DNA from: a virus
Taxonomy: Duplodnaviria > Caudoviricetes
Direction: 5' to 3' (one strand)
DNA: 64,000 nt
Virus record (IMG/VR): IMGVR_UViG_2511231106_000002
Coordinates: 35,953-99,952 of that record
Position numbers and translations under genes: made by a program. Position 1 is the stretch's first letter. Every line of letters starts with the position of its first letter. The notes beneath the pieces were generated by a model. It saw nothing but the letters and a program-made list of their open reading frames with translations, was not told the origin of the DNA and ran no database searches. Below, one piece after another: positions 3,362 through 15,364 of the stretch.

Positions 3362-4552
3362 TTATCCCTTCGCTTTCATCTCCAGGGCCTTGACCGCTTC
3401 CTTGAGCATCAGCATGCCATCGACGCGCTGGCTGGCAAGGAAGCCGATCTGGCCGTTGGCGGCATACAATTCGTTAAGCCGCTTGAAGGAGCGGTATTCC
3501 CTATCGGCAATCCAGTAGTAGCTGAAGTCCCCGAAGAGCATGGGACGGCTGCCCGCCGCCAGTTCCGGTGCAAAGGAAGTGCAGTAGCAGGGACGGTTCA
3601 GGATAGTATCCGGCGTACCTGCGGTGACAGACGGCTGCCAGATGTAGTTGCCGTTGTTGTCCTTCACCTTGCGCAAGGCCTTAATGGTTGCATCGTTCAG
3701 GAGCCATACGGCCTTGCGGCGGTACGGGATACGCAGGGAGTGATACAGGTCGATGACATCATCAAAGGTGATGGATGCGCCATTGGCTATCACGCCCAGC
3801 TCCGCGGACGGGAACACGCCAGTCGGCTTGTTCTTCCCGTCACCGGTGAGGAAGGCTTCTTCTTCCTTCGTGCCGATACGGCGGGCAAATTCACCGGCAA
3901 TGTAGCTTTCCAGGTCGAAAGCGCTGTCGTTCAGCAGTTCTTCCGACACACGGATAGCCGTCCCCAGCTTGTACGCCCCGATGGACTGCTGGCCGAAGGT
4001 ATCCTGGCTGTCCGGGTAGAGGCCGTTCTCTTCCATCCAGGACGCTTCGCCATGACCCGTCACGATGGGAATCTTGCGGTCGCCGCTGGTGTGGATGACC
4101 GTGGCCAGGCCGCGGAAGAAATTCTCTTCCTGGAGCTTGTCGATGAGCTGGTGTTCGAATTCGTCCGGTACCAGATAGCCACCATCAGCATCGGTGCCTG
4201 CACTCAGGGCGTTCTGTACATCAATGAAGTTCTTATGGCGGATGCTGTCCCAGAAAGCCTTACGATAGGCATCGGACGCACGGCCTCTCTTTTCTGCTCC
4301 ATTCTGGCCTGCGCCAGGGAGTTCAGTAATCGGCATCGTGGTCGGCTGGGACAGCTGGGCATCGAGCTGCTGCTGGCGTTCCAGGCGGTCGATTTCTTTG
4401 CCGAGGTTCACCACATCCGCTTCCATCTTGTCGTAGCGAGCCGCATCTTCTGCAGAGACCATGCCGTTTTCATCACGGACGGTATCCAGAAAATTCTTGG
4501 CGGCATCCCACAGATTCTTGCGTTTCTCACGCAGTGCTAAAATCGTATCCAT
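3362..4552 (-). CDS. Major capsid protein, HK97 family
   Basis: Coiled-coil delta domain, GGYLVP, AFLTGDG..KPTG, FGDFS.Y. Confidence 0.95.
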   Translation of the reverse strand: MDTILALREKRKNLWDAAKNFLDTVRDENGMVSAEDAARYDKMEADVVNLGKEIDRLERQQQLDAQLSQPTTMPITELPGAGQNGAEKRGRASDAYRKAFWDSIRHKNFIDVQNALSAGTDADGGYLVPDEFEHQLIDKLQEENFFRGLATVIHTSGDRKIPIVTGHGEASWMEENGLYPDSQDTFGQQSIGAYKLGTAIRVSEELLNDSAFDLESYIAGEFARRIGTKEEEAFLTGDGKNKPTGVFPSAELGVIANGASITFDDVIDLYHSLRIPYRRKAVWLLNDATIKALRKVKDNNGNYIWQPSVTAGTPDTILNRPCYCTSFAPELAAGSRPMLFGDFSYYWIADREYRSFKRLNELYAANGQIGFLASQRVDGMLMLKEAVKALEMKAKG

Positions 4553-12449: not shown

Positions 12450-13955
12450 CATCTTTTTCTCAAAGAAGCAGGCAATGCCGGCCAAGACGAAATACACGCA
12501 GGGAAGGGCGACACCGTTGCCCCACATCTTGTATTCCGCAGAATCCCGGTACGGTTCCTTCAGCCATTTGATAATCTGGTTCCGGGTCTTGGGCTTTGTC
12601 TTTTTCCCCAGGGCTTTCCGATGGGTCTCAAAGACATCGCTCCAAAAGCGGATGTCTTCTTCAGACGGGTTCCCTGTTTCCAGATGGCTGCACCACCAGT
12701 CCGGGAATCCCTGGAGCCTTGCACATTCTGCCGGCATCAGGCGGCGGACACGAGCATGGCTGTTGATGAGCGGCGGATCTTTATAATCTGTAGCTACCAG
12801 GGAGCTGGCCACTTCCTTCGCTGCTCGTGTAAAGTGGGAATTCTTGCTGGCGCTGTAGGTCTGCTCCACCACGGCGATGCCGCCCTGGTTGCTCCCCGGC
12901 ACATTCCCCGAACGGTCGACGGTCCGGCAGGTATCGCTCTCATAGACATGGTTGCGCATATTGCGGGTGCCATCTGACGTCTGGCGCACATCATAGGTTC
13001 TCCGTGTTCCGTCAGCACCGCCTTGAAGCACCAGTGGCTGGTTATTGCCGCCAGTCCCGTACCGCGCCGTGAGTGATGGGTTCACAGAGAGCGGCCCCTT
13101 GTACCGGGCATCGGCTCCATGGTTCTCAAACACCGGCCCCGGCAGATTGACGATGACCGGAGGATGATGGGCTTCTGCCCGCAGCGTATTCGTCCGCTCT
13201 TCCGTCACATCCATGCGGATACCGCCCTGATCATTCAGGCAGACTGTGCCTGTTGCTCCAGTGCCAGGCGCAAGACCTCCGGCAGCACTCTGCCATGCTC
13301 GGAAGCCCTGCGCAGAATACCCTGACAGGCCCTCGGACTCAAATAGAACCTTGGCGGCACTTTGTCCATCAAAATCTGCGACAAGGTAGATGCGTTTTCT
13401 TCTTTGGGGAACACCCCAGTACTGGGCGTCGAGGACGCGCCAGGCCACAGAGTAACCGTTTCCCAGGATGCATCCGGCGGGCTTCCATTTCGCATATCCA
13501 GCCACTGAAACCGCAGGTTCTTTAATGCGGCAGATTTCTTCGAGGACCGTCCGGAAATCCTCACCCTTGTTACTGGAGAAAGCCCCAGGGACATTCTCCC
13601 ACACGATATATCTTGGATATTGTCCATTCGTTGCTTCCCTCATTTCCTTCACGATGCGCACTGCCTGATAGAACAGCGAGGACTGCGAACCGCCAAGGCC
13701 GTCCCTTTTTCCGGCAATCGACATATCCTGGCAGGGACTGCCGAAGGTAATGATGTCTACCGGCTCGATTTGTGCGCCGTTTACGGCACTCACATCACCG
13801 TAATGCTTCACAGATGGCAGCCGTCTCGTCGTCACGCGGATGGGGAACGGCTCGATTTCCGAGTTCCATACAGGACAGATGCCCGCCAGGATGGCGCCCA
13901 GTTCAAAGCCACCGCTCCCGGAGAACAGGCTGCCCAGCTTAATCTGTTCCATCAT
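12441..13955 (-). CDS. DNA (cytosine-5) methyltransferase
   Basis: SLFSGSGG (I), GSPCQD (IV), WENV (VI), PQRRKR (VIII), RRLMPAEC.RLQGFP (IX), GNGV (X); long variable region. Confidence 0.93.
   Translation of the reverse strand: MMEQIKLGSLFSGSGGFELGAILAGICPVWNSEIEPFPIRVTTRRLPSVKHYGDVSAVNGAQIEPVDIITFGSPCQDMSIAGKRDGLGGSQSSLFYQAVRIVKEMREATNGQYPRYIVWENVPGAFSSNKGEDFRTVLEEICRIKEPAVSVAGYAKWKPAGCILGNGYSVAWRVLDAQYWGVPQRRKRIYLVADFDGQSAAKVLFESEGLSGYSAQGFRAWQSAAGGLAPGTGATGTVCLNDQGGIRMDVTEERTNTLRAEAHHPPVIVNLPGPVFENHGADARYKGPLSVNPSLTARYGTGGNNQPLVLQGGADGTRRTYDVRQTSDGTRNMRNHVYESDTCRTVDRSGNVPGSNQGGIAVVEQTYSASKNSHFTRAAKEVASSLVATDYKDPPLINSHARVRRLMPAECARLQGFPDWWCSHLETGNPSEEDIRFWSDVFETHRKALGKKTKPKTRNQIIKWLKEPYRDSAEYKMWGNGVALPCVYFVLAGIACFFEKKMQK
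13235..13627 (-). CDS. Out-of-frame overlapping gene inside the C5 methyltransferase (M.EcoHK31I beta-like)
   Basis: 130 aa; GAGGGAAG RBS 6 nt before ATG; STLSQIL...FYLSPRACQGILRRASEHGRVLPEVLRLAL. Confidence 0.7.
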   Translation of the reverse strand: MDNIQDISCGRMSLGLSPVTRVRISGRSSKKSAALKNLRFQWLDMRNGSPPDASWETVTLWPGASSTPSTGVFPKEENASTLSQILMDKVPPRFYLSPRACQGILRRASEHGRVLPEVLRLALEQQAQSA

Positions 13956-15189
13956 CTGCCACCTCCGCATACGGGATTTTCTCATCTCCGCGCAGGATAA
14001 ACACACCCGCGTCCCCATATTCACTGATGTAGCGCCTGACGATGACGTCGACGAACTTCTCGTCCAGCTCGATGCCGTAACAAATGCGGCCCGTCTGCTG
14101 GCAGGCCATGAGTGTGGAACCGGAACCGAGGAACGGATCCAGGACGATACAGTGGCTCATAGACGAATTCTGTATTGGGTACGCCATCAGGGCTATAGGC
14201 TTCATGGTGGGATGCTCTTTGCTGGCTTTCGGCCGGTCGTATTCCCAGATGGTCGTCTGTTTGCGGTCGGAATACCATTGATGCCTGCCGTTCAGCTTCC
14301 AGCCAAAAAGGCACGGTTCATGCTGCCATTGATACGGGCTACGTCCCAGTACCAGGGCGTTCTTCTTCCAGATGCAGCAGCCAGACAAGTAGAATCCTGC
14401 GTCCTTGAATGCCTTGCGGAAGTTCAGCCCCTGGGTATCTGCGTGGAATACATAGATGGAAGCATCCTGCTCCATGTTCTGTTCCATATTGACGAAGGCC
14501 GCGAAAAGGAACTGGTAGAACTTGTCATCCGGCATATTGTCGTTCTTGATCTTGCCGGCCGTTTCTTCGACATCGACGTTATACGGCGGATCCGTCAGCA
14601 CCATGTTGGCCTTCTTCCCCGCCATCAGCCGTTCATAGGTTTCCGGCAGCGTCGCATCGCCACAGATGACGCGGTGGTCACCCAGGAGCCAGATATCTCC
14701 CGCACGGGCGACAGTCGGCTTTGCCAGTTCGCCATCGACATCAAAGTCATCTTCCTTGATTTTCTTGTTGTACACTTTCGAGAAGAGCTGCTCGACTTCC
14801 GGTGCTTCAAAGCCCGTCAGGTCGACGTTGAAGTCGACGCTCTGCAAATCGACGATGAGGTCGGCCAGGAGCTGTTCGTTCCAGGCACCCGTGATTTTGT
14901 TGAGCGCAATGTTGAGCGCCTTGACCTTATGCTCATCCTCGATATGGACAACGACACACTGGACTTCTTCGTAGCCCAGGTTCTTCAGTACGGTCAGGCG
15001 CTGATGCCCGCCGATGACCGTCATGTCGTAATTGACGATGATGGGTTCCACATAGCCAAACTCCTGAATGGACTTCTTGATTTTCTCGTATTCCTTGTCG
15101 CCAGGCTTCAGCTGCTTCCTGGGGTTATATGCCGCAGGCTTCAGCTGGCCGATGGGCAGCATCTTCCATTCCATATCCGATGTCTTCAC
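13939..15189 (-). CDS. ParB-like domain + N6/N4 DNA methyltransferase
   Basis: YNPRK/GGHQR ParB N-terminus; TDPPY, HPTMKP, DPFLGSG. Confidence 0.93.
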   Translation of the reverse strand: MKTSDMEWKMLPIGQLKPAAYNPRKQLKPGDKEYEKIKKSIQEFGYVEPIIVNYDMTVIGGHQRLTVLKNLGYEEVQCVVVHIEDEHKVKALNIALNKITGAWNEQLLADLIVDLQSVDFNVDLTGFEAPEVEQLFSKVYNKKIKEDDFDVDGELAKPTVARAGDIWLLGDHRVICGDATLPETYERLMAGKKANMVLTDPPYNVDVEETAGKIKNDNMPDDKFYQFLFAAFVNMEQNMEQDASIYVFHADTQGLNFRKAFKDAGFYLSGCCIWKKNALVLGRSPYQWQHEPCLFGWKLNGRHQWYSDRKQTTIWEYDRPKASKEHPTMKPIALMAYPIQNSSMSHCIVLDPFLGSGSTLMACQQTGRICYGIELDEKFVDVIVRRYISEYGDAGVFILRGDEKIPYAEVADDGTD

Positions 15190-15364
15190 ACGCTTGCTCC
15201 TCTCTGAAGGCAGCCGCCACCGCTCTGCCGTAACCGGCGAGGTGGTGCCACCTGCAATAATTCCGTACGCTGTCCCGTGACAGCTTGGTCTTCCTGGCGA
15301 TGGCTTTGTAGCCCATCCCCTGCTTCCGCATGGCTTCTATCTGCCGACGCTGGCAGTCGTTCAT
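15125..15364 (-). CDS. Small HTH protein
   Basis: RKQGMGYKAIARKTKLSRDSVRNYCR; AAAGGAG RBS. Confidence 0.7.
   Translation of the reverse strand: MNDCQRRQIEAMRKQGMGYKAIARKTKLSRDSVRNYCRWHHLAGYGRAVAAAFREEQACEDIGYGMEDAAHRPAEACGI

Follow-up and report, generated by a model that had tools for sequence, protein, structure and literature searches.

Two natural two-chain C5 DNA methyltransferases are known from the literature, M.AquI and M.EcoHK31I (PMC2836561, PMC3404938). In M.EcoHK31I (E. coli HK31, YGGCCR) the beta polypeptide is encoded inside the gene of the alpha polypeptide, in another frame and from its own start; alpha lacks motif IX, which is supplied by beta, and beta is needed for activity and associates with alpha through its N-terminal part (PMC2836561, PMC3404938). 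In M.AquI the alpha chain has motifs I-VIII and the beta chain motifs IX-X (PMC3404938). A related arrangement is present in the databases as annotation only. In Streptococcus phage MM1 (AJ302074.2) ORF13 is a complete methyltransferase, and ORF14, of 141 aa, is nested within it in the +1 frame. The labels given in MM1-1998 (DQ113772.1) are 'C5 methyltransferase alpha subunit' and 'beta subunit', the latter being no more than an annotation label.

The locus described here lies in a stretch of 64,000 nucleotides (the window) of an IMG/VR provirus, whose record of 99,952 bp was found in pig-gut metagenomes. The minus strand encodes a C5 methyltransferase of the PF00145 family, with motifs I, IV, VI, VIII, IX and X in a single frame (Table 1). 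In fact, the main frame holds all ten motifs and the enzyme is without an obvious gap. The gene starts at the ATG at 13955, behind the ribosome-binding site GGAGGTG (13960-13966). This start is overlapped by the stop of the upstream gene, which encodes a ParB_N domain and an N6/N4 DNA methyltransferase, so the two genes probably form one operon; the same neighbour is found at the related loci L001, L002 and L006. Long antisense ORFs are common across the GC-rich stretch of the window, for instance one of 455 codons opposite the ParB/N6 methyltransferase gene (13840-15207, plus strand) and one of 219 codons opposite the C5 gene (12318-12977). The same provirus has a second, ordinary C5 methyltransferase of 355 aa outside the window (G000:C1:22094-23116; L173:1474-2541), which is adjoined by a gene of 362 aa and of unknown family; the two may form a restriction-modification pair.

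Table 1. Positions, within the window, of the methyltransferase gene, its motifs, the nested gene and the upstream neighbour.
Feature	Position	Strand	Basis or remark
C5 DNA cytosine methyltransferase, 504 aa	12441-13955	-	PF00145 E=9.9e-46, translation, homologues 45-95% identical
Motif I	13905-13925	-	translation, main frame
Motif IV (PCQ)	13728-13742	-	translation, main frame
Motif VI (ENV; E120-N121-V122)	13590-13598	-	translation, main frame
Motif VIII (QRRxR)	13392-13406	-	translation, main frame
Motif IX (RRLMPAECARLQGFPDWW)	12693-12749	-	translation, main frame
Motif X	12501-12521	-	translation, main frame
Shine-Dalgarno-like GAGGGAAG of the nested gene	13634-13641	-	built from main-frame codons E-M-R-E
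Nested +1-frame gene, 130 codons and stop	13235-13627	-	ATG start, wholly inside the methyltransferase ORF
Leader of the nested product, residues 1-75	13403-13627	-	pLDDT 44-52, predicted disordered
C-terminal module of the nested product, residues 76-130	13238-13402	-	alignment A1, predicted three helices
ParB_N + N6/N4 DNA methyltransferase, upstream neighbour	13939-15189	-	PF01555, PF02195

The initial annotation had pointed to a second ORF of 130 aa on the same strand, in another frame and wholly within the C5 gene, with a Shine-Dalgarno-like stretch 6 nt before its ATG, a start just before motif VI and motif IX left in the main frame. All four observations were borne out. The ORF is in the +1 frame relative to the main frame, and along the minus strand the order is GAGGGAAG (13641-13634), the six nucleotides CAACGA and the nested ATG (13627-13625). 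The latter spans the main-frame codons N110 and G111, ten codons ahead of motif VI, and translation places motif IX, and likewise motif X, in the main frame.

By its description the arrangement resembles that of M.EcoHK31I, as the methyltransferase gene holds, in an alternative frame, the complete coding sequence of a second polypeptide. However, the main frame of the enzyme in the window has the whole set of motifs I-X, including motif IX (RRLMPAECARLQGFP), and the nested protein has none. The system is therefore not an M.EcoHK31I system as defined, because its main frame lacks no motif. The likeness to M.AquI concerns relatives of the locus: in the rare family variants L006 and L177 the enzyme is split and the nested start opens the second chain, and in Mycobacterium phage Omega the products gp127 and gp128 are split in the M.AquI manner, with gp128 starting at its own ATG after the end of the nested ORF. 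The enzyme in the window is unsplit, unlike M.AquI, and whereas the second chain of M.AquI carries motifs of the catalytic domain, the small nested protein does not.

Within the window alone the nested ORF is not significant. The +1 frame was open in 37% of the reshuffles of synonymous codons of the main frame (P(open)=0.37), and the region, with 55-60% GC, is rich in long chance ORFs, so the significance of the ORF rests on the comparison with homologues. For this, 160 loci were gathered from viral and genome collections with the main-frame protein only (identity 45-95%, GC 0.32-0.63). In 159 of them an ATG preceded by GAAATGAGG is present at the same aligned position and opens a +1 ORF of 126-157 codons, mostly 129-131. 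The exception, L167, has lost the ATG and has the C-terminal module intact behind a later one. Counted as distinct sequences, 142 of 143 homologues are open against a shuffle expectation of 0-0.4 per locus, values that cannot simply be multiplied since the homologues share phylogeny. The frame is open in low-GC homologues (GC 0.32-0.40), for which 3-7 stops are expected. For those from the low-GC hosts Ligilactobacillus, Helcococcus, Anaerococcus and Streptococcus the expectation is 4-7 stops (4.4-7 at GC 0.32-0.37), and there are none before the natural stop. After dereplication all 67 homologues have an open leader part (codons 1-76) versus 14.4 expected, and all 67 have an open module part versus 31.2. 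A second sample of 80 loci, picked by the N-terminal 215 aa only, had the ATG at the aligned position in 79 cases and comprised 69 uninterrupted methyltransferases, 2 that were broken and 5 cut by a contig end. Frequent stops among close homologues, which the initial annotation had named as evidence against a nested gene, are thus the opposite of what was found: ORF, start and stop are kept across diverged homologues beyond what the main frame demands.

The start region carries its own mark of selection. The nested ATG is invariant in the 67 dereplicated homologues. The main-frame codon that precedes it ends in T in all 67, versus 58% of the Asn/Asp codons in the rest of these genes. The Shine-Dalgarno GAGG of the nested gene comes from an Arg codon that is the rare AGG in 66 of the 67, as against an AGG share of 17% among the Arg codons of those genes, and a GAA is present in the Shine-Dalgarno region in 63.

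The variation within the overlap was analysed in the same 67 sequences, dereplicated at 85% identity, as the entropy at third positions of 4/6-fold degenerate consensus residues of the main frame. Outside the nested ORF this entropy is mostly 1.6-1.9 bits. It is 1.1-1.3 bits in the first part of the nested ORF, falls over the last 60 nested codons to 0.83, 0.70, 0.45 and 0.26 bits, and is back at 1.63 bits directly past the nested stop. In nested codons 101-127 the entropy at positions 1, 2 and 3 is 0.63, 0.54 and 1.30, i.e. the wobble is in the nested phase, and the most variable base is the first codon position of the main frame. Synonymous variation of the host frame is suppressed only in the overlap, and with the periodicity of a second frame. 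When the closest relatives are compared, 12-17 differences in the leader leave the main-frame protein unchanged and affect the nested one, and 1 does the reverse; in the module the two types number 3-4 and 4-5. Taken together, the comparisons show strong purifying selection on the C-terminal ~55 residues of the nested protein, and show the ORF to be a separately initiated coding sequence of which the leader is only kept open. Selection has preserved the nested gene in practically all of the relatives inspected, among them phage P1. The reading of the initial annotation, a hidden gene that is real, selected and separately initiated, is strongly supported by the conserved ORF, the start signals, the entropy and the periodicity, and judged from these sequence comparisons the nested ORF is very probably a real, translated gene. 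Metatranscriptome contigs (X16-X18) were considered as proof of transcription and rejected, as they cover parts of the gene in relatives that are 90-99% alike.

The nested product consists of two unlike parts. The sequence of the leader is dictated by main-frame motifs VI-VII and is fast-evolving; its conserved letters mirror these motifs out of frame, SGKTSPE in alignment A1 being WENVPG shifted by one base. The module has the signature STLSQIL..YLSPRACQGILRRA..G..LP..L..ALEQQ and in alignment A1 the consensus STLSQIL..VPEKYYLS.KAC.GILRRA..RGK.LP..L..ALE.Q. AlphaFold predicts residues 1-80 to be disordered and helices at 82-88, 98-111 and 117-128, with mean pLDDT per block of ten residues of 56 (81-90), 76 (91-100) and 83-91 (101-130). 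The DNA that encodes the module covers motif VIII and, after it, a poorly conserved main-frame linker (0.44) between the catalytic core and the highly variable recognition region. The module is ~70% identical across relatives; the total length of the methyltransferases is 457-789 aa, with the recognition region varying. Searches of Pfam, PHROGs and the PDB sequences with the window's own protein gave no significant family, including no match to PF00145. Foldseek and VIA-align searches with AlphaFold models of the nested protein and of P0228, a natural module-TRD-IX-X protein modelled for the fold search, returned only weak helical look-alikes with Z below 5, none of them informative. Profile A1 picked up no second nested module anywhere in the provirus record, and the provirus's canonical Dcm (L173) is without a segment that resembles it.

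A relation to MM1 ORF14 did emerge at the level of profiles. Profile A1 matches ORF14 with an hhalign probability of 95.7% (E=9e-9), and phrog_16143, the PHROG of ORF14, is matched by 65 of the 67 family members (best E-value 5e-9) and by the window's nested protein only at E=0.028. MM1 ORF13/ORF14 and the window have in common a complete C5 methyltransferase with a nested ORF in the same +1 position, which in MM1 comprises ~140 codons over motifs IV-VIII, and the two nested families share the core W..G..E.P..SLS.ILE..V.E.YFLS. There are clear differences as well: MM1 ORF14 has a more upstream start and stops just past the YFLS helix, it is without the GILRRA..RGK.LP..L..ALE helices of the window's protein, and its host enzyme belongs to another branch (ENVKGL/QNRER). 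From the profile matches and the shared position, the nested protein is a distant homologue of MM1 ORF14. The initial annotation further likened its STLSQIL segment to the N-terminal part of M.EcoHK31I beta, a putative resemblance for which the 'beta subunit' label of MM1 ORF14 is an indirect hint. The kind is thus already in the databases, as annotation only, and the window holds a distant new member, from a clade in which the nested gene is unannotated.

The explanation that we consider best overall, with confidence a little above even, is a dual-coding stretch in which a nested gene with its own start encodes a non-catalytic partner of the methyltransferase. Translation of the nested gene would most likely begin at the internal, conserved ATG (13627), with the GAGG of the main-frame E-M-R codons in front of it, and proceed in the +1 frame over 130 codons. 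The first ~75 residues would form a disordered leader, free to drift and only kept stop-free, and the last ~55 a strongly conserved three-helix module, the coding sequence of which overlaps motif VIII and then would take over the constraint in the main-frame linker. The small protein would share its mRNA with the methyltransferase and act as its non-catalytic partner subunit. Its probable docking site is the conserved core and not the variable recognition domains, since the module holds ~70% identity despite a recognition region that varies. A partner role is favoured by the exclusive and ancient linkage of the module to this enzyme clade, by the obligatory co-expression from one mRNA, and by natural variants in which the module is joined in frame to TRD-IX-X (L006, L177 and the permuted L008); with these fusions a position of the module next to the recognition region fits. 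The reading as an accessory subunit is plausible, and whether the product is a partner of the methyltransferase rather than something else we regard as evenly balanced. More tentatively, the 14-kDa protein could be an obligatory subunit throughout the phage and prophage C5 clade, including P1 Dmt, with enzymes that would otherwise be inactive or mis-targeted.

It is also conceivable, if rather unlikely, that the overlapping gene is real and translated and that its product is not part of the methyltransferase and serves in tuning or inhibition, expression control, anti-defence or DNA handling. All of the selection evidence fits such an independent function equally well, the main-frame enzyme has every catalytic motif, and the module is without similarity to methyltransferase structures and is conserved independently of the very variable recognition region. 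However, the module is strictly tied to a single C5 clade in phages of at least four bacterial phyla, the in-frame fusions to TRD-IX-X exist, and M.EcoHK31I provides a precedent for a nested partner (PMC2836561).

The fused and split relatives bear on another possibility, namely that the +1 frame has no start of its own and is the relic of an ancestral alpha/beta split enzyme or a device for ribosomal or mutational shifting, with (I-VI + module) or (module + TRD-IX-X) as alternative products. Many database proteins of ~240 aa indeed begin in the main frame and switch to the +1 frame (P0265, P0278, P0280), and others of 400-540 aa start like the nested ORF and continue into TRD-IX-X. Nevertheless, frame switching of this kind is improbable. 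The switch points vary between the proteins and look like ordinary indels, as at the C9 run of L006, and sampling without bias yields, as a rule, the fused form with its nested ORF of ~130 codons. Moreover, frame switching needs no invariant ATG, no selected Shine-Dalgarno codon and no open, unconstrained leader, all of which are predicted by an independent start. A clean split occurred in 0 of the 71 classifiable loci of the unbiased N-terminal sample. The 'split' variants, on which the partner reading draws, may have arisen by indel mutation or faulty assembly, and the numerous database proteins of 240 aa and 400-540 aa represent frame-switch artefacts or mutants; both points, like the complete set of motifs in the main frame, weigh against certainty about a partner role.

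Several of these relatives deserve a description of their own. The C9 run of L006 (2690-2705) lies exactly where the methyltransferase changes frame, and it may reflect a sequencing error or else a phase-variable tract by which the locus alternates between fused and split forms. The gene at L008:2781-4335 is circularly permuted: one frame starts with MKHLGD and carries motifs IV-VIII, and an overlapping +1 ORF of 444 aa (P0190) has a nested-like N-terminus, followed by the TRD, motifs IX and X and, C-terminally, motif I. L006, L177 and L008 were rejected as proof that the nested start is used, as a single indel near the nested stop yields them. In L001 an in-frame stop replaces a Ser codon just past motif VI (4054-4056; NVPGAFS*NKGEDF), and gene callers have split the locus into three pieces, the nested ORF among them. 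Database 'proteins' of 130 aa were likewise rejected as independent evidence, as in the four inspected contexts the caller had turned to the nested frame because the main frame was interrupted, by a stop, by a frame disruption or by what we read as a run of unreadable bases in the scaffold. A single-chain version with the module in frame was looked for and not found: the ~240-aa proteins with PF00145 and the module were rejected, being frameshift fusions that lack motif VIII, and Bacillus was absent from the ten commonest organism names in either tblastn search of phages with the module. An equivalence of the module to the 'L.DILE..KYYLS' piece of one-chain enzymes is therefore no more than a suggestion.

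That the frame is open by chance, through GC content and main-frame amino acids, or is held by a non-coding RNA or DNA constraint, is very improbable: the reshuffling of the window alone and the many long chance ORFs nearby would allow it, but the frame is free of stops even at GC 0.32-0.40, for which 3-7 would be expected, the nested start and stop keep their positions, the constraint extends exactly to the nested stop, the homologues are not near-identical copies (main-frame identity 45-68%), and the periodicity shifts to the nested phase, which an RNA or DNA element would not bring about.

The preferred reading, a separately started gene for a partner protein, would apply to a clade of considerable spread. 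A tblastn search with the last 55 residues gave matches in 137 phage records. The module was found in the +1 frame of the C5 domain in P1 dmt, Vibrio CP-T1 gp12, Mycobacterium Omega gp127, Pseudomonas D14E, Akkermansia Chantilly, Roseobacter CRP-821 and Burkholderia Bcep22; in these seven opened records it lies within a stop-free stretch of 152-194 codons that is unannotated. More specifically, P1 dmt has a stop-free +1 stretch of 163 codons in the N-terminal C5 domain (AF234172.1 66710-67201; L258:2177-2668), which ends in the conserved module and has candidate ATGs for 162, 157 or 137 codons; the P1 reference genome has no feature annotated at this stretch. The C5 methyltransferase of Omega is annotated as two 'hypothetical' same-frame genes, gp127 and gp128 (L259:1466-2770), separated by a stop codon and one further codon, with an unannotated +1 ORF of 157 codons within gp127. 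In the Omega relative Schatzie (L265) an HNH gene lies within the methyltransferase gene, which carries the remark 'unable to determine intron boundaries'. The expectation of the initial annotation that pipelines drop the nested gene held as well, as none of the 11 inspected annotated phage records with a methyltransferase of this clade lists it. Gene callers forbid long same-strand overlaps, and the nested gene is therefore missing from almost every inspected record, including the P1 reference.

Long same-strand overlapping genes with solid evolutionary support are, to our knowledge, rare in bacteria and phages. If the product is a subunit or a regulator, cloned enzymes may carry or lack a needed second protein unnoticed, and this would concern those used for the assignment of specificity, for the interpretation of methylomes and as tools. 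In that case synonymous recoding of such genes would destroy the nested protein, and variants in motifs VII-VIII that look silent would not be so. P1 dmt constitutes a tractable system in which the nested gene can be tested. If the small protein is indeed an obligatory subunit, thousands of annotated 'single-gene' methyltransferases would be two-chain enzymes, both chains of which are encoded by one dual-coding stretch.
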